A stretch of DNA of 64,000 bases, from positions 64,001 to 128,000 of IMG/VR virus record IMGVR_UViG_3300031993_000008; one strand, written 5' to 3'. The stretch comes from a virus (lineage: Duplodnaviria; Caudoviricetes). Positions 5,508 through 18,467 of this stretch are shown piece after piece. The position numbers and the translations under genes are program-made. The notes beneath the pieces are model-generated. The model had not been told where the DNA came from. It worked only from the letters and a program-made list of their open reading frames with translations, and ran no database searches. Every line of letters starts with the position of its first letter. Position 1 is the stretch's first letter.

Positions 5508-7295
5508 TTAATCTACCTTATTATATGGTGCCAGGTCAACCTCATGACCATAGAAGGCTTCTATCACACCAGCAACCTTACATGCATTCTCAAATGAGAT
5601 TGTATCATTGTTGAAGTAAGCATAATTCTCTTTACACTCAATGAGTTCATTTCCCTTGTAACTCAATGTCCAGTTATCCTTACTTTCATTTACACTCTCA
5701 ATCTTCCAGTTGTCATTCTCATATACTGACTGTTTACCCTGGATGAATCTTGTGATGAGTTTCCTCAATCCACCAAGTCTGATGTTCTCACCTTCTTCTA
5801 TTATCTTACTTTCATTTAACATAACACTTTCATCAAGTTTCTCAACAGGTACATCAAATCCTGTGGTGTTGTCTGTGAGGATGAATGAGTTCTCTACTAC
5901 AACAGCCTTGTCTGAAATTCTGTGAAGCAGCTTACTACCACCTATTGCAATATTGATATTGATATTGTCATTTACAGTCTTCAAGACAACAAGTTCATTC
6001 TTGTATATGGTACCATTGAACCTGATGTTCATCTCAACCATAGGATCTCCCTTTCTCATACCTGAAAGTTCCATCTTGTAAGTGACACCATTGAATACGA
6101 ATGTCACGTCATCGTCCTTCGCATTTACTGAACTACACTGGAGTTCTGTGAATGTCTTGTTGTCATCAAACTTCATAGCAGCATCAACACCATCACCCAA
6201 ATCCTTGAAAGTGACAGTTTCATACTTACCAATCTGATCTGAATCATACTTGGTGTACTTGAAGTCCTTGAACATATCCATCAATGTACCTACAACATCA
6301 TCACCGGCAGCAGTTGTAATACCCTTGGTACCAGGAGATGAGTTCACCTCAATCACATATGACTGCTTTGTCCTGGAATCCATAATAAGGTCAACACCGG
6401 CCCAACGACAACCTGTTGCCTTGGCTGCCATCTTTGCAATCTTCTCCTGTTCTGATGTAAGATGACCCTTCTCTGCTGTTGAACCCAGTGAGTAGTTACT
6501 TCTGAAATCGCCGGCAAGCTGGTTTCTCTGCATACATCCGATAATCTCAAAATTGTCAATACCTGGGGTCATCCTTTCAAATCCCCTATAGAGTACATGG
6601 ATACGGAGGTCATAATCTGAATTGATTTTCTCCTGGAGAAGAATATCTGCCTTTGGTACAAGTGCAAATATTGCCTGAAGGACAGATTTAAGTGAAATCA
6701 TTGAATCTATCTGGGCAACACCAATACCCTGTGTTCCCTTTGTAATCTTGATGATAAGAGGAAAACCACCACCTACAGCAGCAACCTTATCTTCAAGTTT
6801 GTTCATTGAAGAGTTGGTAACAACAGCGGTCTTTGGTGTAGGAACACCGGCAGCTTTAAGTTTCTTGTATGTGATGAACTTATCCTCACAGTTGTCAATT
6901 GCATCAAGAGTATTCAATACAAAGAATCCGTCATTCTGGAGTTCAGTAAGGAAATCCCTTGACTCGATATTCTTCAAAACTGTTCTTCTTGGAACAATGA
7001 TGGTGTTGTTTGGATTGAGGGTGAAAGTCTTTTTTGTTTCACCATTCTCAACTACATTGTAATCATCATCACTACCCTTTGAGATTGTAGATGAAGAAGG
7101 ATCAATTGTGACCAATTTCAATCCTGCCTTTTTGGCTGCCTCCTCAAAGAAAAACATTGAATTGGAACTCTTTGTGGTCTTTTCTGCCCTACTTGACAAG
7201 AAAACAACCTGGATGTTCTTTGCTTTCTTACTTTCATTAAGAGGAGCATATCCTTTACTTGAATATTTCATAGTCATAAATGTATATAATTTCAA
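5508..7295 (-). CDS. rimK: RimK-family ATP-grasp ligase fused to a degenerate protease-like domain
   Basis: DKFITY..GVPTPKT, PLIIKITKGTQGIGV, LLQEKI..DLRIHV, FRSNYSLG, AGVDLI..VIEVNSSPG. Confidence 0.85.
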   Translation of the reverse strand: MKLYTFMTMKYSSKGYAPLNESKKAKNIQVVFLSSRAEKTTKSSNSMFFFEEAAKKAGLKLVTIDPSSSTISKGSDDDYNVVENGETKKTFTLNPNNTIIVPRRTVLKNIESRDFLTELQNDGFFVLNTLDAIDNCEDKFITYKKLKAAGVPTPKTAVVTNSSMNKLEDKVAAVGGGFPLIIKITKGTQGIGVAQIDSMISLKSVLQAIFALVPKADILLQEKINSDYDLRIHVLYRGFERMTPGIDNFEIIGCMQRNQLAGDFRSNYSLGSTAEKGHLTSEQEKIAKMAAKATGCRWAGVDLIMDSRTKQSYVIEVNSSPGTKGITTAAGDDVVGTLMDMFKDFKYTKYDSDQIGKYETVTFKDLGDGVDAAMKFDDNKTFTELQCSSVNAKDDDVTFVFNGVTYKMELSGMRKGDPMVEMNIRFNGTIYKNELVVLKTVNDNININIAIGGSKLLHRISDKAVVVENSFILTDNTTGFDVPVEKLDESVMLNESKIIEEGENIRLGGLRKLITRFIQGKQSVYENDNWKIESVNESKDNWTLSYKGNELIECKENYAYFNNDTISFENACKVAGVIEAFYGHEVDLAPYNKVD

Positions 7296-7337: not shown

Positions 7338-9269
7338 TTATCTTCTATCCATCTGGTTGTATGTCCTGTCAACATACTCTCTGAAATCATCCACATAGTC
7401 ATAAACCTTTGCATTTGGTGAATGTACACAAGGTTCATCTTCCTTCCTGAATTTCTTTGATTTCTTCTTTTTCTTCTTTATCTGTTTAAGGAACATTGTA
7501 TATGGTGCAACCTGGTGGTAAACTATTCCTGTTGGTGATGGAAGGTCTCCTGATCCAGGCTCACCATTTGGACCTGGAAAATAAGCAGCACCCATTCCAC
7601 CCACACTGGCAGGTGTGGCACCACCCGGAACACCCTCACATTCATTTGTGATATTTTTTTGTCTTTCTGCCTCTTCCATTTCAACATATCCTGAAAGTCT
7701 GTCTGACAATTCATCAGCCCAATAGTTCCTGACATAATTCAATATACCTTCAATGTTGGCATCCTGTGACACAACACCCTCTCTGTCATTACTTTCAATA
7801 TAATCACAAAGACCATCAAGTGAAAACTCATAATCATCATATACTATCCTAGTAGCATAAAAAACAAGGAACTGTTCAAGATTATCCATATCTTCAAATG
7901 ATAACTCATCCTCCTTCTTTATTTTCTCACCACTACCCCTGTCCAATATACCTTTCCAGACTGATTCATTTGTAGGATGCCATGCAACATATTCTGTCAT
8001 CTTTTCCTCCCATGTGAGGTCACCCCACATATCACTTGGATTGACATAGTTGTCTTCACATCCTCTGGAGTATAATACATCCATTCTATCACTTTCATCC
8101 AATGAATCTGCCCACCAAGTATCAAGTGTATCATCTATGGTCTTACCTGGTTGCTTCTCAAAACCTATTTTCTTTATTTTCTCATTTTCTGAATTAATCT
8201 CCTCATCTATGACTTTTTTAACTTTTCCCCAACATCTCTTGGCAAAATCAACCTTCCTCACTACATATTCCTTTGCTTTATTGTCAATGATGTTCCATCT
8301 TTCCTTGCAGAACCTTTCAAAGTCATAGAGGATGTTTTTGTACTGTTCATAATACACTATCCTTTCCACAAATGACCTGATGTCATATTTAATGTCATCA
8401 ACAGTAAGGTCATCCTCCTTTCTTACACTGTCTCCTGAACCCCTGTCAAGCATACCACCCCAGGTTGATTCATTCACATATTGACTGTTCAGGGAATCGA
8501 CAACATCATCAATTTGCTTATTTAAATTATCAATCGCATCTTCTATGGCAGGAAGTACAGTATCATCCCAGTGTTCTTTGGTGTAGTCCAGGAGATCATC
8601 CATATTGTAATCAATTGATGACACCCTTGGTTTATCCTTATAATCTTTTATAAAGGCTTTGAATTCAGAATAACTACCCACAGTATAATCATGTGTGTAT
8701 TCTATTGCTGCAAATATTTCTATATATGCAGAAAGGGCGTTCAGAAGATTTTCTGATATTTTGTCTTCTTTCCTTTTGTCATCTCCTCTACCTCTGTCAA
8801 GTATTCCACCCCAGGCGGATTCATTGACAAGCATATTATCTTTATTATTCAAAAAGAATTCAATTACATCTATGTATGTCTTATTGGTACAAGTACCATC
8901 TTCTTCTTTTATAACTCTTCTACATGTACCTATATTTTCTACATTAAACTTTTCTGATAAAGCCCACAAAAATGAGTGTCTTATTTTTACACCTACACCA
9001 GACCAAGACAACACAATATGATCCATTTCACCATCCTCATTATAAATGGTCTTTAATGATATATTACCTATTATATCAACACAAATTTCCCATGAATTGA
9101 ATTTACCTGTATACTTATCTAAATAAAATATCCTTTTCTCATATTTGGACTTGATATAATCATAAAGACCATCAACATCAAGGAGATTGATATCATCCTC
9201 CTTTCTGATAGTCTCTCCTGTACCCCTATCAAGGACATCACCCCAGACTGATTCACTGATTTTCTTCAT
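7338..9269 (-). CDS. Modular polyprotein with four ESxWGxxLDRGxG repeats (putative internal head protein)
   Basis: Motif at the N-terminus and three internal positions, each internal copy preceded by NE; late promoter at 9275-9282. Confidence 0.85.
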   Translation of the reverse strand: MKKISESVWGDVLDRGTGETIRKEDDINLLDVDGLYDYIKSKYEKRIFYLDKYTGKFNSWEICVDIIGNISLKTIYNEDGEMDHIVLSWSGVGVKIRHSFLWALSEKFNVENIGTCRRVIKEEDGTCTNKTYIDVIEFFLNNKDNMLVNESAWGGILDRGRGDDKRKEDKISENLLNALSAYIEIFAAIEYTHDYTVGSYSEFKAFIKDYKDKPRVSSIDYNMDDLLDYTKEHWDDTVLPAIEDAIDNLNKQIDDVVDSLNSQYVNESTWGGMLDRGSGDSVRKEDDLTVDDIKYDIRSFVERIVYYEQYKNILYDFERFCKERWNIIDNKAKEYVVRKVDFAKRCWGKVKKVIDEEINSENEKIKKIGFEKQPGKTIDDTLDTWWADSLDESDRMDVLYSRGCEDNYVNPSDMWGDLTWEEKMTEYVAWHPTNESVWKGILDRGSGEKIKKEDELSFEDMDNLEQFLVFYATRIVYDDYEFSLDGLCDYIESNDREGVVSQDANIEGILNYVRNYWADELSDRLSGYVEMEEAERQKNITNECEGVPGGATPASVGGMGAAYFPGPNGEPGSGDLPSPTGIVYHQVAPYTMFLKQIKKKKKKSKKFRKEDEPCVHSPNAKVYDYVDDFREYVDRTYNQMDRR

Positions 9270-11557: not shown

Positions 11558-12367
11558 TTAGATAAGACCCCACTCTGCCAGGGCTTCAAATCCACCGATA
11601 GAGTCAATATATGCCTTTGCTTCCTCTACAATCTTACTGTAAGGGATACCATTCACCTCTGTATCACCAATGGCACAGAAGAATGTCTGTGTTCTACCAG
11701 TTCTTTGGGCTTCCAGGAAAGCATAGATGTTAACAGACACATCTGCCTTTGATATATCCTTTCCATTGATACCACCACCAGTAACACCACGACCCATATC
11801 TGAACCAAGCTTGCGGTTGACAGCACCAGTATCAACATTTGTTCCACCAGTCCAGTCACCCAGAGGATTGACAGTTATGGTATATTCCGGATAGTTATAC
11901 TGGAGTTCTGCCTTGAGTTCTTCTGAATTTGCACAACTCTGACATACAATCAAAGTCTTTGTCTTGTCATCAATGACATACTTTCCATCTGTGGGATACT
12001 TCTCATATATCTTCTGTACAATATCCCTCAACTCCATCTCTTCCGGAAGTATAGGTTCACCCTTGAAGATACCATTGTCGCCACAACGGATCTCACCATC
12101 CTGGTTGTGTGCCAGGTGTTCATCCTGGGGAACATTGATGAGTTTGAGTTTTACATCATCACCTGCTATCCTCTTGACAACCGGTAACACATTCTCATCA
12201 TTGAAATTGAAACTTGACTCTGCAATAATGGTACAAAGTCCATGACCAAGGAGTACCTCTATTGCAACCTTGGGATTTTGTTGATTAGCATATGCAAGGT
12301 CAACCAATGCACCAGCAATGCGATCTGCCACCTTATCAGGATGGCTGGGGTTTACTTTCTCAAACAT
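11558..12367 (-). CDS. metK: Compact S-adenosylmethionine synthetase-like protein
   Basis: HPDKVADRI, GDNGIFKG, DTGAVNRKL, GGGINGKDISKADVS; 269 aa versus about 390 aa in cellular MetK. Confidence 0.8.
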   Translation of the reverse strand: MFEKVNPSHPDKVADRIAGALVDLAYANQQNPKVAIEVLLGHGLCTIIAESSFNFNDENVLPVVKRIAGDDVKLKLINVPQDEHLAHNQDGEIRCGDNGIFKGEPILPEEMELRDIVQKIYEKYPTDGKYVIDDKTKTLIVCQSCANSEELKAELQYNYPEYTITVNPLGDWTGGTNVDTGAVNRKLGSDMGRGVTGGGINGKDISKADVSVNIYAFLEAQRTGRTQTFFCAIGDTEVNGIPYSKIVEEAKAYIDSIGGFEALAEWGLI

Positions 12368-12403
12368 ACTATATACTTAAAAATTAATATTTTTTCAACA
12401 CTT

Positions 12404-12427
12404 TAAATATAACAAACCTCATAAATA
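12404..12427. promoter_or_regulatory. Back-to-back middle promoter (-, metK) and late promoter (+, cassette array)
   Basis: TAAATATAACAAA at 12404-12416 and CATAAATA at 12420-12427. Confidence 0.7.
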
Positions 12428-12450
12428 TTATATCACATTTCTAAAATAAA

Positions 12451-13221
12451 ATGAAGAAATTAAGTAAAATAGATGAATCAGTCTGGGGTGGTATCCTTGA
12501 CAGAGGAACAGGTGAAATCAATAGAAAGGAGTATGGTAAAAAAGTCCATACCTGTATAGATATTGACATTTACATTAAAGATTCATCCTGTCAGTATGAC
12601 AAATACATAAAACACATCCTGGATTATGATAACTATAAATTACCTTGCAGAATTTGTATAGGTTTTGAACGAATCAGTAATCCAACATATACTCCTGAGG
12701 ATTTGGCAAAAATGAAAAACTTTGAAATGCCATATGATTATGTACTTGATGAATACACCAAACCTAAAAATGAATTTGACTATCTTGTTGCATGGTTTTG
12801 GAAATATAATGAATTTATGGACCACAATACCAATGCTGACATCACTGAAGATGATTATATGTCAATATGTAGAGGTATAGCAATCAAACTAAAAGAGATA
12901 GGTAATCGTATTGAACATATGCCTGGAAACAAAACCAATATTATTGGTCAGGATGGTGTATCCAGTAAGTATTCCAATTTTGCCTTGAAATTGATGGATG
13001 AAAAAAATACTTTCCACTGGAAACATGCACATAATGGCAAATCCTTACTTGATTACAAAGAAGATATGATTCATGAATTTCCGGAATTGAAAGATGTTGA
13101 TTTCTTAATGTGGCCATTCAATCAATTCCCTTATGTAAACATTGGTCTTCCAATCACATCAGTAACTGTCAAAGACTTCAAAAAATATGAAGAATATACT
13201 CATAATTGGTTTACAGTATAA
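12451..13221 (+). CDS. WGGxLDRG-leader protein, cassette 1
   Basis: MKKLSKIDESVWGGILDRGTGEINRKE; cargo is paralogous to the next gene. Confidence 0.85.
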   Translation: MKKLSKIDESVWGGILDRGTGEINRKEYGKKVHTCIDIDIYIKDSSCQYDKYIKHILDYDNYKLPCRICIGFERISNPTYTPEDLAKMKNFEMPYDYVLDEYTKPKNEFDYLVAWFWKYNEFMDHNTNADITEDDYMSICRGIAIKLKEIGNRIEHMPGNKTNIIGQDGVSSKYSNFALKLMDEKNTFHWKHAHNGKSLLDYKEDMIHEFPELKDVDFLMWPFNQFPYVNIGLPITSVTVKDFKKYEEYTHNWFTV

Positions 13222-14003
13222 TGAAGAAATTAAGTAAAATAGATGAATCTACCTGGGGTAATATGTTGGATAGAGGTACTGGTGGTGTAATCAAAAAAGA
13301 AGATGGTAAACTTGTACACACATGTCTTGATGTAGATATAGCCATCAAAGACCAGAAATGTGATTATAATACACTCATTAAAGAAATATTGAATGATGAT
13401 TTTATTAGTGGATTTTACCAAGGGGTGGTAATACTAAATACACAACAGAAATCATATTCACCAGAAGAGATGGCAAACATAAGAAAATTTGAAGCACCAT
13501 ATGCATATCTCATTTATGATGGTAAACATGGTACAAGTCTTGTTGCTGAATTCTGGGCATATTCTGAATTCCAGGATTCTGACCTTACTACTGATTTTAT
13601 TGAAAGTGTATCGGAAGAGGATTACATATCCATCTGTAAAGGTATTGCCACAAAACTGAAAGAAGTCGGAGGAGACATTGCACAACTTCCAAGAAGACAT
13701 TCCACAATTTCTAACACAAAAGACCGTGATTTCAATGATGAATATGTGTTTAAACTCATTGATGAATCAGATATTGCATGGTGGGGAGACTATCCTGATC
13801 CAGAAGGAAGGACTCTTACTGATTTTGAAACGGATATGTTCACAGAGTATCCGGAATTAGCAGATGTTGATTTCTTCACTTGGACATTTTATAGCGGATG
13901 TAATATAGGTATCCCTATCAATTATGACACACTTGTTAATTTCAAGAAATATAAAGAATTTACTAAAAACTGGTTTAAAGTAACAGATGAAGAAACTGAG
14001 TAA
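13221..14003 (+). CDS. WGGxLDRG-leader protein, cassette 2
   Basis: Likely start is ATG 13221 (TAATG coupling); MKKLSKIDESTWGNMLDRGTG; shares VHTC.D.DI.IKD, DY.SIC.GIA.KLKE, PEL.DVDF, NIG.PI with cassette 1. Confidence 0.85.
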   Translation: MKKLSKIDESTWGNMLDRGTGGVIKKEDGKLVHTCLDVDIAIKDQKCDYNTLIKEILNDDFISGFYQGVVILNTQQKSYSPEEMANIRKFEAPYAYLIYDGKHGTSLVAEFWAYSEFQDSDLTTDFIESVSEEDYISICKGIATKLKEVGGDIAQLPRRHSTISNTKDRDFNDEYVFKLIDESDIAWWGDYPDPEGRTLTDFETDMFTEYPELADVDFFTWTFYSGCNIGIPINYDTLVNFKKYKEFTKNWFKVTDEETE

Positions 14004-14982
14004 AATAGATGAATCAACCTGGGGTGATATACTTGACAGAGGTTCAGGAGATACTGTGAGAAAAGAGGATGATGTGAATCATTTTGAGTTCTATGATTTT
14101 GTTCATTATCTTGAAGAGAAATATCCTTCCAAAAACAGAGGTACTGGAATTGTATCTGGGCAATCAATTAAAAACAAAAATATTCTCTATTTATCTATAC
14201 CAATTAAAAGATTTGATAATAAAACTCAATGGTTAAGAATTGAGGTTGATAAAGAAACATTAAAGTATACAGGAAACATAGAGGTTAGCAAATCCTTACA
14301 TACCGAATATGAATATACTTTGTTTTCTAAAAAGATATTGGGTAAAAAGTATAAGATTCTGTATAATTTTAGATTTGAAGACTATATATTGAGACCTATT
14401 GATGGTGAGATAACAAACAGTAGCATTGTGGAATTGATTGACATGTTTTTGCATAATGTTGATAACCCATTATTGAATATAGATGTCAATGAATCCACCT
14501 GGGGTGGTATCCTTGACAGGGGTGCTGGTGATGCCATAAGAAAGGAAGACTTACCGGAACAAAATAAGGAACACTGGTGGAGAAACATTGAATTACCAAA
14601 TGTTCCAAAGTATAAAAAAGATGAGCTCAAGGCATTGGATCTGATGTATGATTTTGCTGTGGATAAGATTAGAAAAAGATTCAATGTTTCCTGGCCATAC
14701 CAGATAGTGTTTCACTTTGATGGTGAACCATATTGGGATTTAAATATTGAACACATAACCCCACGAGGTTATGATACTTTTGCTATGTATGCTCATGGAC
14801 CCAGAGCGCCCTGGCAGATTTATTTTTCAGATATGTCAATGGGTGAAAAGAGAAGTATAAGATACAGACTTGAAAAGAAGAAGTTCTATGTATATCCATA
14901 TAAATATGGAGATGGAAGAGTAGAGTATCATTTAAGGGAACAAAGTACCTATAATAATGAAAAAGGAATTGAATTGAAATGA
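13987..14982 (+). CDS. WGGxLDRG-leader protein, cassette 3 (two modules)
   Basis: N-terminal motif plus internal VNESTWGGILDRGAGDAIRKED. Confidence 0.85.
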   Translation: MKKLSKIDESTWGDILDRGSGDTVRKEDDVNHFEFYDFVHYLEEKYPSKNRGTGIVSGQSIKNKNILYLSIPIKRFDNKTQWLRIEVDKETLKYTGNIEVSKSLHTEYEYTLFSKKILGKKYKILYNFRFEDYILRPIDGEITNSSIVELIDMFLHNVDNPLLNIDVNESTWGGILDRGAGDAIRKEDLPEQNKEHWWRNIELPNVPKYKKDELKALDLMYDFAVDKIRKRFNVSWPYQIVFHFDGEPYWDLNIEHITPRGYDTFAMYAHGPRAPWQIYFSDMSMGEKRSIRYRLEKKKFYVYPYKYGDGRVEYHLREQSTYNNEKGIELK

Positions 14983-15611
14983 TAAAAATAGGCTTGGATT
15001 TCTCACTTGTATCCCCGGCAATATGTGTTTACAAGAATGGAGAGTATTCTTTCATCTCCTTCTTTGATGATTATGGAAAGGACTGGAAAGGAGGAAAGAT
15101 AAAGGCATTCAACTACCATAGGGATCTGTCAAAGTTTATGGAGATGAATCCCTACACAAGACATATTGAAAAGAAGGATTACAGGGAGGAACAGAGGACA
15201 AAGATGAGGGCTGCGAAGATGATCGCAAATAAGATCTCCAACAGACTTGTTGAGATTGTTGGTGGTGAGGAGGTCATCATAGGTCTTGAAGGATTCTCAT
15301 ATGGCAGTATTTCATCATCCACCCTGGACCTGGCACTCTTCAACTCATTTCTCAGGATAAAACTCCTTGAGGATTTCGGTGAGGATTGTCTTGTAATCAT
15401 CTCCCCTACAGAAGGTAAGAAAAACCTTTCAGGTAAGGGAAATGCAAAGAAGGAGGATATGATCCAGGCCTTCATTGAGAACAGGACAAATGACCCGGAT
15501 ATTGAGAGATGTCCATTCTGGAAGTTCTGTAAGGAGAATGAACTTGATTATAAGAACATAAAACCTATTGATGACCTTGTGGATTCATATGGTATATTGA
15601 TAAGTATATGA
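14979..15611 (+). CDS. RuvC-like Holliday junction resolvase
   Basis: IGLDFSL, IGLEGFSYGS, SPTEGKK..GKGNAKKEDM, DDLVDSYGI. Confidence 0.8.
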   Translation: MIKIGLDFSLVSPAICVYKNGEYSFISFFDDYGKDWKGGKIKAFNYHRDLSKFMEMNPYTRHIEKKDYREEQRTKMRAAKMIANKISNRLVEIVGGEEVIIGLEGFSYGSISSSTLDLALFNSFLRIKLLEDFGEDCLVIISPTEGKKNLSGKGNAKKEDMIQAFIENRTNDPDIERCPFWKFCKENELDYKNIKPIDDLVDSYGILISI

Positions 15612-16183
15612 AAAAGTTAAGTAAAATAGATGAGTCAACCTGGGGCAATCTCCTGGACAAAGGTGCCGGAGAAAAAGAAGCAAAGGAAGATACATTCAAT
15701 TTCAACTTCTATCAAATAAAACCGGTTGATTTGGGTCCAGAATTTCCATTCCTTTGGGCAGATACTGACCTGATTGCCAATGATGAAATATACTTTGATT
15801 GGGACACATTACAGAGAATGCTTCCCCAAATTAAGAAAACAGGATGGAGACTTCCCTATTCACCAAACCAAATGAGAGATGTTATTAAACTCATAAACAC
15901 ATCACCTAATCTGAAAACAGTATGGCACCGCAGGGCATTTGGAATGATAGAGAATACAGACACTGGTGAATATGTATCATTTCCTACAGGTAGTCAATTT
16001 GGAGAAACCTATTGGTGTGAAGATGATTATCATTCAACCAATCCAGGAAGACAAATTGAAAATGAAAGGGTATTTGAAATAGGTGAAAACTATTATCAAG
16101 ATGGTAAAAAGATGGTTTTACTTTCAACTAATAATATGGAAAAAACAAGAACAGCAAGAATAAGACTCGTAAAGGACAAATGA
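15608..16183 (+). CDS. WGGxLDRG-leader protein, cassette 4 (DUF1566/Fib_succ_major-like cargo)
   Basis: Leader, then PVDLG..LWADTDL, GWRLP, YW, IRLVKD. Confidence 0.8.
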   Translation: MKKLSKIDESTWGNLLDKGAGEKEAKEDTFNFNFYQIKPVDLGPEFPFLWADTDLIANDEIYFDWDTLQRMLPQIKKTGWRLPYSPNQMRDVIKLINTSPNLKTVWHRRAFGMIENTDTGEYVSFPTGSQFGETYWCEDDYHSTNPGRQIENERVFEIGENYYQDGKKMVLLSTNNMEKTRTARIRLVKDK

Positions 16184-17010
16184 AGAAGTTAAGTAAGTTA
16201 TTGAATGAATCTACCTGGGGTGGTATGTTAGACAGAGGTAGGGAAGATTCTGTAAGTAAACAGGATTTTGGTGCTGAACTGGAAATTGATGGTACAAAAT
16301 ATATATTTGCCAAAGATTTCTGGAATATGGGTGATATATATGAAAAGGAAAATGAAAGTGAATGGACATGTTTTGCCTTCAATAAAATGCCAAATGGAAG
16401 TAAAATCATAACCGGTGACACTGATGCTGCCGGAGTTTTCGGTAGAGACAAATGGGATATTGGTGAAAATGAATATGAGGTATATGTATTGAGGAATTAC
16501 TTTGATAAAACAAAACAGCAATTGGTAGAGAGTTCAATAAATTGGGGTGACATTGATGAAATAGGAATTCCTGAAATCAAAAATATTCTTGTAAAGTATA
16601 TAGAAGAAGTATACACAAAACATATGTCTGATTTTGCATATCACTGGATTCAGGAATTAGAATCAAAAGATTGGTCTCAGGATTTAATAATATGTTGCAA
16701 TATCTACAATGAAGATGATATTCAAAATGGTGAAGATTCTAATATAGATACCATTCAAGATGAATTTAATCACAATGTCATTGAAAAAATACATATCATT
16801 TCATTTTCATCATTGGAACACACAGATTGGGATGAAAGACTTGAAAAGGCATTGACAGATGAATATACAAAGATAGGATATGTCAAGTCAGAGGAATTTG
16901 ACCTGGATCCATTTAATGACCCAGGAAATACAATATGTCTTACATTTGTCCTTTTAGGTGAAGAAAAAGAGGATGATGAAGAAGATGATGAAAACCATAG
17001 AGATTATTGA
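16180..17010 (+). CDS. WGGxLDRG-leader protein, cassette 5
   Basis: MKKLSKLLNESTWGGMLDRGRED; acidic cargo of unknown function. Confidence 0.85.
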   Translation: MKKLSKLLNESTWGGMLDRGREDSVSKQDFGAELEIDGTKYIFAKDFWNMGDIYEKENESEWTCFAFNKMPNGSKIITGDTDAAGVFGRDKWDIGENEYEVYVLRNYFDKTKQQLVESSINWGDIDEIGIPEIKNILVKYIEEVYTKHMSDFAYHWIQELESKDWSQDLIICCNIYNEDDIQNGEDSNIDTIQDEFNHNVIEKIHIISFSSLEHTDWDERLEKALTDEYTKIGYVKSEEFDLDPFNDPGNTICLTFVLLGEEKEDDEEDDENHRDY

Positions 17011-17012
17011 TT

Positions 17013-17552
17013 ATGAAGAAATTAAGTAAAATAGATGAGTCAGTCTGGGGTGGTATCCTTGATAGGGGAACCGGTGAAAAGGTAAAGAAAGAGGATAACT
17101 TGGGCAATATCTTATCACTCAAACCTATTGATATGGGTGGTTCTGTCCTCTGGGCAGACCAGAACCTGATATATGATGGAGAAGAGATATTCACATATGA
17201 TGAGGCAAATGACCTCATATCCCATTCAGAATGGAGACTTCCAACATTAAAGGAGGTTGCTGAACTATATGGACATAACTTATACTATGATTCAAAATAT
17301 ATATACCTTGATGATCCCAAAAAAATATCATTCAAGAAATGTGGTTGTGGATATCCTAAAGATATTATAATTGATAATGGTAAATGTTTTTATGGATGGA
17401 CATCTGAACCATATGTAAAAAATCCAAGAAATATCAATGTATTTGTCATAGACCATTATACAGTAGATTATACAGGAATTGAACCAGCAAGTATCCCTGT
17501 TACCCAAGATAGAGACACCAGATGTTGTATAAGACTGGTCAGAGACAAATAA
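17013..17552 (+). CDS. WGGxLDRG-leader protein, cassette 6 (DUF1566/Fib_succ_major-like cargo)
   Basis: Leader, then PIDMGGSVLWADQNL, WRLPTLKEVAEL, YGWTSE, CIRLVRD. Confidence 0.8.
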   Translation: MKKLSKIDESVWGGILDRGTGEKVKKEDNLGNILSLKPIDMGGSVLWADQNLIYDGEEIFTYDEANDLISHSEWRLPTLKEVAELYGHNLYYDSKYIYLDDPKKISFKKCGCGYPKDIIIDNGKCFYGWTSEPYVKNPRNINVFVIDHYTVDYTGIEPASIPVTQDRDTRCCIRLVRDK

Positions 17553-17581
17553 AAAAGAGAGGACAAAATCCTCTCTTTTTC
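17553..17581. terminator. Bidirectional terminator closing the cassette array
   Basis: AAAAGAGAGGA-caaaa-TCCTCTCTTTT. Confidence 0.8.
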
Positions 17582-17609
17582 CTTTCAAATGTTTAATCTA
17601 AATATTTTT

Positions 17610-18467
17610 TTATGCAAAACGAACAGGAGTCAGAACTACATAAGTCTTGGTACCCTTTGCATCCACAGAGATGAACTTAATCTTGTTGCTGTGGAACTCA
17701 ATGTCATAATGTTCATCTGAATCAATCCAGACAAAGTATGACTTGTTGAAACAGTGGAGATAAGGTTCATCAGTCTTATTTTCACCATCTTCATAAGAAA
17801 GCTTCTTAGTGTAGAGTTTGTCAAATGCATTGAACTCCTCAATAAGACCATCCTCCAGGAATTTATTGACTGTCTCACGGACATTCTCATCAGTACTCTC
17901 AATCTCTGATACCAGTACAGTCTCACCACTGATTGAGAAGAATACTCTGCAAGACTCCTTGTTAAGAGCAAAGAGTTGAGACAGATACTTAAACTCATTC
18001 TCTGAAATACCAACCTTATATTCAAGAGTTGAATTATCCTCAAAGATACTCTGACGGGCATGGTCAGGAATTTCAAGGAATGCAAGTGCTTCCTTATCAG
18101 CAGCAGGGACAGTGAGGTTTACCTCATCATTAGCAACAATGACCTTCTTTGCATAACCATTGTCCTCAATAAAGAAGGTAACATCCACACCCTCTGTACC
18201 AACAAGACCAAGTACAGAAACCAACTTACCGGCATTACTGAACTGAATCTTTACAAGATCATCCCCACACTCATTGGTGAAACTCTCACAGTAGTTGTTG
18301 AGGTCAGCGGTGATAGACTTCAATGCAGACTTGTTCTTATTATAAGCAGTTGACTCGAACCTGTCTCCCTGGACATTTATAAAAATCATATTGTCCAATG
18401 AGGCACTTCTCTTGATGAGAGTATTAAACTCCTTTACATCACAATTCTTTAAAACGATTTTCTTCAT
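17610..18467 (-). CDS. Probable DNA polymerase sliding clamp (gp45-like)
   Basis: Size, acidic two-domain beta/alpha pattern, middle promoter, close to PolB; no diagnostic motif. Confidence 0.55.
   Translation of the reverse strand: MKKIVLKNCDVKEFNTLIKRSASLDNMIFINVQGDRFESTAYNKNKSALKSITADLNNYCESFTNECGDDLVKIQFSNAGKLVSVLGLVGTEGVDVTFFIEDNGYAKKVIVANDEVNLTVPAADKEALAFLEIPDHARQSIFEDNSTLEYKVGISENEFKYLSQLFALNKESCRVFFSISGETVLVSEIESTDENVRETVNKFLEDGLIEEFNAFDKLYTKKLSYEDGENKTDEPYLHCFNKSYFVWIDSDEHYDIEFHSNKIKFISVDAKGTKTYVVLTPVRFA

Follow-up and report, generated by a model that had tools for sequence, protein, structure and literature searches.

What unites a run of phage genes whose products start alike and then continue into unrelated domains? 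The question is raised by positions 12420-17581 of the 64,000-nucleotide (nt) stretch of DNA analysed here (the window), which corresponds to positions 64001-128000 of the 248,382-bp virus record IMGVR_UViG_3300031993_000008. In this array of genes a short leader and a conserved tag of about 25 residues precede several unrelated cargo domains. The record (G000; 67% complete by CheckV, genome GC content 37%) comes from an uncultured, T4-related giant phage of the gut or rumen. A first-pass annotation of the window had read the array as a candidate modular set of virion-packaged, injected effectors behind a conserved leader. The interpretation towards which we lean is that it constitutes a late operon of capsid-loaded, protease-separated cargo modules in a T4-related jumbo phage. 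Five independent, indirect kinds of evidence point in this direction, viz., the match between the tag's putative cleavage site and the phage's own predicted head-protease sites, the leaders, the late-type expression signals, the fusion and fission of genes at the tags, and the copy of a capsid-protein peptide in one of the tagged proteins.

The array and its tag

The array consists of seven tightly packed genes on the + strand, abutting or overlapping one another, six of which are tagged and one untagged, and it is predicted to form a single operon that extends from an upstream CATAAATA motif to a terminal hairpin. Its features, along with those of a second locus of the window with the same tag system, are as follows (arrows mark predicted cuts):

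12420..12427, + strand: CATAAATA, putative late-type promoter motif, 31 nt upstream of the array's first ATG and the only CATAAATA in 12300-17700
12451..13221, + strand: g12451, leader, tag and cargo A; 256 amino acids (aa)
13221..14003, + strand: g13221, leader, tag and a paralogue of cargo A (A'); 260 aa, its cargo sharing 39% identity with that of g12451
13987..14982, + strand: g13987, leader, tag and P module, followed by a VNE↓S tag (nt 14485-14550) and Y module; 331 aa
14979..15611, + strand: RuvC-like Holliday junction resolvase, untagged, mid-array in all relatives (phrog_159, E 1.6e-12; synteny)
15608..16183, + strand: g15608, leader, tag and Lcl_C-like (lectin-like) cargo; 191 aa
16180..17010, + strand: g16180, leader (LNE↓S), tag and cargo Z with an acidic tail; 276 aa
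17013..17552, + strand: g17013, leader, tag and Lcl_C-like cargo; 179 aa
17551..17581, unstranded: 14-pair hairpin flanked on either side by T-runs, where convergent genes meet; operon end
7338..9269, - strand: 643-aa protein with four tags (nt 9195-9260, 8763-8828, 8412-8477 and 7908-7973)

The common start that the first-pass annotation had recognized in six + strand genes (12451, 13221, 13987, 15608, 16180 and 17013) is present in each of them and takes the form MKKLSK(I/L)x(x)E-S-(V/T)-W-G-x-(I/L/M)-L-D-(R/K)-G-x-G-x3-4-K-(E/Q)-D, with g16180 departing slightly from the pattern (an MKKLSKLLNES start, and GRED in place of GxG). A degenerate DNA pattern of the motif core matches the window 18 times against 1.65 expected, a count reached in none of 100 shuffles. 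At least four unrelated cargo types had been claimed, and the seven modules of the array indeed fall into five families (A twice, P, Y, Lcl_C-like twice and Z); the cargos are not notably AT-rich as had been stated, the region having a GC content of 34-36% against 37% in the genome.

The tag can be written as PHI-x-E-S-PHI-W-(G/S)-(G/D)-(I/M)-x-x-R-(G/S)-x-G-x-x-PHI-(R/K)-K-E-D. Beyond the starts of the array genes, it is found once inside g13987, four times in the 643-aa protein and three times outside the window (G000 positions 17164, 245531 and 132530-133831), giving 14 copies in the record. A profile built from the 11 window copies and searched against 1.84 billion representative proteins matched 342 clusters (50% identity) at E ≤ 0.001; the same profile found no tag in Prevotella phage Lak-A2 or LR756500.1. 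The best 150 metagenomic proteins of this search, which are the basis of the tag statistics, contain 383 instances, with up to 8 tags per protein and a median module length of 155 residues. As 137 of these instances lie near the N-terminus and 246 are internal, the tag is a delimiter of modules and not a leader alone, and the initial description of an essentially N-terminal motif does not hold. With the Trp numbered as 0, its conserved positions are:

-5 (P3): I/V/L in 313 of 383
-4 (P2): N in 177 of 383 overall, and in 64% at internal sites
-3 (P1): E in 381 of 383
-2 (P1'): S in 370 of 383
+2: D in 327 of 383
+6: R in 354 of 383
+9: G in 368 of 383
+13: R or K in 381 of 383
+15: E in 378 of 383
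+16: D in 362 of 383

Searches of Pfam, PHROGs and NCBIfam gave no family that extends over residues 1-30 of any tagged protein. In profile-profile comparisons of five pairs among the A, P, Z and Lcl_C-like families, only 22-30 residues of leader and tag align (probabilities 97-98.5%), and the Y module has no BLAST match to any other module. In the AlphaFold2 models of the cargo A and cargo Z proteins, leader and tag have a predicted local distance difference test score (pLDDT) below 50. The tag is thereby predicted to be a portable and unstructured element outside the cargo folds, and the suspicion that it might simply belong to an already described folded domain found no support in either the family databases or these two models.

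Predicted cleavage sites, leaders and late-type signals

The phage has a DNA polymerase of the T4/gp43 type (best match Flavobacterium phage MaF61, 23% identity), a prohead protease of the gp21 family (Peptidase_S77; PF03420, 36.6 bits) that forms one 669-aa protein with a coiled-coil scaffold, and a 580-aa capsid protein of the gp23 family (PF07068, 98.5 bits), with both Pfam matches over the curated cut-off; on the strength of these three components we class it as T4-type. The nearest capsid proteins in INPHARED are all at ≤45% identity, namely those of an uncultured 462-kb phage (44.5%) and of the Prevotella Lak phages (33%); a Bacteroidota host is therefore likely. Homologs of the protease-scaffold protein are abundant in metagenomes (>5,000 at E ≤ 1e-10), many of them on contigs of 300-412 kb. 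At genome 38380-40389 (L043 5383-7389, - strand), the scaffold part of the 669-aa protein displays about 8 tandem 14-residue units of the form (H/Y)(Q/N)(D/N)Y(L/I)AE..N..(I/V), whose copy number differs among relatives.

The capsid protein contains the sequence SLNE↓SALGY, which aligns with the gp23 site LTE↓AEIGG (E65↓A66) and the gp24 site LRE↓S of T4, at which the cut positions are well established (see also PMC9026906). Head proteases of the T4 family cleave behind a Glu within short motifs, which read (L/I)-x-E in T4 and A-x-E in SPN3US (PMC5694885, PMC9026906). A comparable site, RVNE↓SYGFG, lies directly after the protease domain, unchanged across 17 relatives. Across the proteome [ILV]NES is seen 19 times against 5.4 expected, and 10 of the 15 sites unlinked to tags, including those in large late-operon proteins, fall within the first 50 residues (binomial P = 3.8e-5). 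The tag site, PHI-x-E↓S, matches both the inferred maturation site of the capsid protein and the site behind the protease domain; among the 137 N-terminal instances of the tag, E occupies P1 in 136, and I or L occupies P3 in 130. Removal of the leader at E↓S, as proposed in the first-pass annotation, would thus fit the phage's own predicted protease sites. A complex prediction for the 669-aa protease-scaffold protein and g17013 returned a score of 0.00, which weighs neither for nor against binding.

We also considered the tag as a mimic of the capsid propeptide, an idea that turned out to be unsupported: the tag hidden Markov model misses the capsid protein, and a relaxed pattern that does match the capsid N-terminus also matches a UvsX-like recombinase. 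The capsid propeptide (genome 35948-37690, residues 11-30), K-T-W-S-G-F-I-T-E-S-T-G, and the T4 gp23 sequence K-W-K-P-L-L-E-G-E-G are both loosely like the tag core W-G-G-I-L-D-R-G-T-G, a likeness without statistical support.

Sites of this type are also seen in proteins lacking the tag. Four large late proteins (588, 784, 935 and 1174 aa; genome 49736-56701 and 63381-66905), to which PHROG gives only the family names 'HNH endonuclease' (phrog_1314) and 'ATPase' (phrog_1297), carry (I/L)NE↓S within residues 14-32, a position that would suit short propeptides for head targeting. In a RimK-like ATP-grasp protein of 589-595 aa (window 5508-7295, - strand; PF08443, E 1e-28; phrog_2599, 'ribosomal protein S6 glutaminyl transferase'), PLNE↓S begins the series at residue 13 and another two [LV]NE↓S sites lie near the C-terminus, because of which the protein may be a head-packaged and processed enzyme.

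The leaders that precede the N-terminal tags are 6-13 residues long, end in (I/L)-x-E and fall into the classes MKKLSKIxE, MKKLSE, MIPDFKT(Y/F)(I/L)xE, M..IK(S/T)FK(K/E)(F/Y)IxE and MVKSFKEFIGE. The leaders MVKSFKEFIGE, MIPDFKTYIKE and MKKLSKIxE keep the aromatic/hydrophobic, I and E positions of the T4 capsid-targeting sequence (CTS), MKTYQEFIAE (PMC8442874), in which positions 4 and 7 matter for targeting and 8 and 10 for processing (PMC9026906). The class MVKSFKEFIGE is especially close to the T4 CTS, retaining positions 4 and 7 as well as 8 and 10 (PMC8442874, PMC9026906). Tagged genes without a leader begin with M-S-(I/V)-W-G, coinciding exactly with the N-terminus predicted for the mature modules.

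The placement of CATAAATA agrees with the first-pass claim of a late promoter ahead of the array: 50 of its 62 occurrences in the genome lie within 60 nt upstream of an open reading frame start, and it precedes the portal and protease-scaffold genes, the capsid gene having AATAAATA. The late promoter of T4 is TATAAATA, and by this motif match CATAAATA is a probable late-type signal. It likewise stands ahead of the array, the syntenic arrays of relatives, the gene for the 643-aa protein and two further tagged genes, G000:17209 and G000:133831. A further connection to the head is provided by the peptide GGMGAAYFPG, which is held in common by the tail of the 643-aa protein and the N-arm of the capsid protein.

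Two observations relate to the surroundings of these signals. At window 9282 and 7308 and genome 17239 (- strand), a GC-rich hairpin with a T-run abuts CATAAATA, i.e., a terminator followed by a late-type promoter, and the gene for the 643-aa protein, the RimK-like gene and G000:17209 each follow such a unit. At L036 7087-7779 and L005 6853-7551 (in the relatives G001 and G002), an operon of tagged genes with the MIPDFKTYIxE leader immediately follows a 230-aa gene that is headed by CATAAATA and starts MKTGIVVNNYDP.FKNRCQIRVFG; judged by eye, the product of this 230-aa gene looks like a gp5/GpV-type baseplate hub oligonucleotide/oligosaccharide-binding (OB) fold, and part of the tagged cargo may be associated with the tail tip instead of the head.

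The distribution of CATAAATA and of the leaders bears on a different explanation, which we regard as unlikely, namely that the tag is a short linear motif by which many phage proteins are brought to a single hub in the cytoplasm, be it a protein of the phage, a protein of the host or an assembly of tags, with no role in packaging and with PHI-x-E-S just part of that motif. Some leaderless tagged genes do lie in early-looking runs of small genes without CATAAATA (G000:245543; G002 at L037 4091-5529), and a hub would also suit the predicted disorder of the tag, the homogenization of its variants within genomes (see below) and a length far in excess of that of a protease site. However, most tagged genes and all the arrays examined lie behind CATAAATA, the N-terminal leaders resemble T4 capsid-targeting sequences, the prevalent N at P2 of internal tags recurs at the capsid and scaffold sites, and the 643-aa protein ends with the capsid-protein peptide copy, all of which weighs against a purely cytoplasmic role.

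Module exchange and tag variants among relatives

Using the RuvC-like gene as an anchor, we recovered four syntenic loci of relatives. Their contents in comparison to the window are given below (square brackets enclose modules fused in one gene, Lcl stands for the Lcl_C-like cargo, and percentages are RuvC identities):

Window: A, A', [P+Y], RuvC, Lcl, Z, Lcl
G003 (93%): [A+Lcl], RuvC, Lcl, Lcl, Lcl
G001 (88%): A, Y, RuvC, Z, [Lcl+Lcl]
G004 (87%): A, [?+Y], RuvC, [P+Lcl], Z, Lcl
G005 (68%): RuvC, followed by proteins of 497-499 aa whose tag has diverged, LKE(S/A)LWKGVIDR

The array content thus varies among relatives, as the first pass had foreseen: the order of the cargos differs, and genes are fused or split at the tags. 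For instance, the Y module, which is the second module of g13987 in the window, is a stand-alone tagged gene in G001, and the same cargos are found as second or third modules in other metagenomic proteins. Between relatives, fusion or fission is always exactly at the tag, which is to be expected under protease-separated modules because the products would be cut there anyway. The individual records differ in their number of tags, with 13-14 in G000, 23 in G001, 13 in G002, 11 in G003, 29 in G004 and 6 in G005 (a fragment). Adjoining the array in all relatives is a gene (window 11558-12367, - strand) for a 269-aa protein whose match to S-adenosylmethionine synthetase is confined to the N-terminal domain of that enzyme (PF00438, E 1.1e-9), and similar DNA is found in many Firmicutes gut phages.

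The core of the tag shows genome-specific variants:

W-G-G-I-L-D-R-G: G000 and G002
W-G-D-M-M-R-R-G: G003
W-N-D-I-R-(K/R)-R-G: G001
W-A-D-I-H-K-R-S: G004

In multi-tag proteins, the variable positions of the tag are 84% identical within a protein versus 39% between proteins. We examined recent gene conversion as a source of this uniformity and reject it for the tag proper: among the 11 window tags, 43% of the codons for identical residues differ, which indicates that the uniformity is held by selection. The simplest cause of a genome-wide uniform tag would be one shared binding partner per lineage, or an association of tags with each other. The DNA of the common start had been described as near-identical and as a recombination handle for the swapping of cargos. 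Both statements can be retained for the 27-nt leader, which has 0-3 differences across five genes and, being nearly uniform, could serve as a recombination site; neither extends to the tag, whose codons have diverged.

These data also allow an assessment of the proposal that the tag is an inherited N-terminal piece of an ancestral P module, spread by duplication and recombination and retained as a junction without function. Roughly every second module of the top 150 proteins is of the P-module family, in which the tag continues into a conserved DD-PHI-N-x-L-D helix, and the near-identity of the 27-nt leader DNA in five array genes would be a natural outcome of such spread. Yet seven tag positions are near-invariant across the 383 instances despite the 43% synonymous codon differences in one genome, a combination that speaks for purifying selection on the peptide. 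Moreover, the cargo families found behind the tag number at least five and are unrelated to one another, and the tag variant tracks the genome and not the cargo orthologue. A functionless junction is, in our estimation, highly improbable.

Cargo modules, place of action and parallels

The AlphaFold2 model of g12451 has a pLDDT of 78 and a predicted template modelling score (pTM) of 0.79, with residues 1-27 below 50; for its cargo A, Foldseek found nothing at E ≤ 0.001 and a wide structure comparison (VIA) gave a best Z of 4.4, and no fold was assigned. For cargo Z (g16180; pLDDT 65) the best Z was 6.5, with nitroreductase-like alpha/beta sandwiches, a range common for the tool, and again no fold was assigned. 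The cargos of g15608, g17013 and G000:17209 belong to a Lcl_C-like family, 23 of whose 32 members match Pfam Lcl_C weakly (best E 4.6e-6) and always under the curated cut-off. In the case of g17013, the match to PF07603 (Lcl_C / DUF1566) has an E of 1.1e-4 and 22.9 bits, short of the gathering score of 34.9; by these sequence scores the cargos of g15608 and g17013 are to be described as resembling Lcl_C, not as members of it. Profile searches of PDB with the Lcl_C-like and P-module families gave only matches at E ≥ 0.08.

By a 70% mutual-coverage rule, the modules group into 49 clusters (single-linkage clustering at 50% coverage lumped unrelated modules and was dropped). When 51 representative cargo modules were compared with Pfam, the only clear matches were to BspA-type leucine-rich repeats (LRR)/DUF285, in 2 modules, and to Lcl_C. 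The cargo searches identified no enzyme or known anti-defence protein, so that the term 'effector' is a guess; the injection and effector role initially given to the cargos is not borne out, the recognizable ones being only binding-type domains.

The nature of the recognizable cargos suggests a further alternative, in which the tag is an uncleaved docking peptide that fixes interchangeable binding modules on the virion exterior as a capsid or fibre decoration, with E-S being part of the docking surface. The lectin-like Lcl_C and the BspA-type LRR/DUF285 are typical surface binders, late expression is consistent with such a role, multi-tag proteins could staple over repeated sites, and genome-specific variants fit co-evolution with a site on the virion surface. 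On the other hand, exterior docking leaves unexplained the identity of PHI-N-E↓S with the phage's predicted protease sites, the T4 CTS-like leaders before the tag and the fusion and fission precisely at tags, and the fold searches with cargos A and Z turned up neither an Ig-like fold nor another one known from decoration proteins. We consider it quite improbable.

Several observations weigh against packaging and proteolytic separation, the reading that we prefer. The recognizable cargos are binding domains that are usually extracellular, and the modules are mostly acidic (pI 4.1-6.5), unlike the basic internal proteins of T4. The conserved 20-residue stretch on the P' side exceeds what a protease needs. 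The leaderless tagged genes in runs without CATAAATA imply that the tag may act outside the head too. Upstream of the 643-aa gene, CATAAATA ends only 5 nt before the ATG, implying that its mRNA would be leaderless or near-leaderless, and tblastn of this protein against INPHARED gave no match.

Under packaging and separation, the start of each module would be a gp21-type protease site, (I/L/V)-x-E↓S, with a peptide of about 20 residues, S-x-W-G-G-x-L-D-R-G-x-G-x3-(R/K)-K-E-D. In stand-alone genes the cut site would close the 6-13-residue T4 CTS-like leader, and the peptide after the cut would remain on the mature module. The sequence data themselves establish the tag pattern, the layout of the operon, the agreement of the cut site with the phage's own predicted sites, the shuffling of modules and the genome-specific variants, whereas packaging, cleavage, a binding partner and any delivery into the host are inferred in the following scheme. 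The proteins would be synthesized late and enter the prohead core via the leader and/or the tag; the protease would then cut before each tag, such that fused and split genes yield the same set of ~15-25-kDa products, each starting with Ser; finally, the retained tag would bind one phage-encoded partner, or other tags, thereby holding the tags of a genome to one variant. A more specific and distinctly more tentative proposal is that the retained 20-residue peptide might be a portable capsid cargo-loading or sorting signal, distinct from the cleaved CTS of T4, that binds a lineage-specific receptor in the prohead core or self-associates. By this means 13-29 interchangeable modules would be loaded and released by the protease with a Ser-x-Trp N-terminus, and the co-evolution of receptor and tag would constitute an 'address code' of the lineage.

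The closest parallels are the internal proteins of T4. IPI, IPII, IPIII and Alt also have a short N-terminal leader ending in (I/L)-x-E before unrelated cargo, and the two phages have in common the gp21-family protease, the gp23-family capsid protein, a TATAAATA-like late motif and a cargo content that differs between relatives. In contrast to T4, only here is there a conserved 20-residue peptide past the cut site that would remain on the product, two thirds of the sites are internal, in polyproteins of 2-8 modules, the tags number 13-29 per genome, and the cargos are acidic; no homology to the bodies of the IP proteins or Alt was seen. In phiKZ, 201phi2-1 and SPN3US, a gp21-related protease cleaves numerous proteins of the head interior behind the Glu of a short motif, several such sites are present in some of the propeptides, and the SPN3US paralogues gp53 and gp54 are identical in their N-terminal 15 residues and diverged in the remainder (PMC5694885). 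However, the motifs in those phages are (A/S/G)-x-E, their propeptides are often >100 residues long, no retained tag or beads-on-a-string architecture has been described for them, and the present phage resembles T4 and not phiKZ. In function, the retained part of the tag finds its nearest analogues in the cargo-loading peptides of encapsulins, which are similarly short, disordered and portable and steer unrelated cargo into an HK97-fold shell; these differ in being usually C-terminal, in having another sequence, in lacking a link to proteolysis and in binding the shell protein directly.

If packaging and proteolytic separation are correct, a large clade of uncultured gut and rumen phages of 230-410 kb would spend up to ~3% of its coding capacity on head cargo, using a grammar of cut site, tag and module that allows fusion, splitting and exchange with unchanged products. 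This would widen the principle of the T4 internal proteins from a few proteins to dozens and add to it a second, retained signal. The tag and leader would then be usable as a packaging handle in the engineering of phages of Bacteroidota, and the cargo modules, mostly without a known fold, would be a candidate pool for functions in host takeover and anti-defence.

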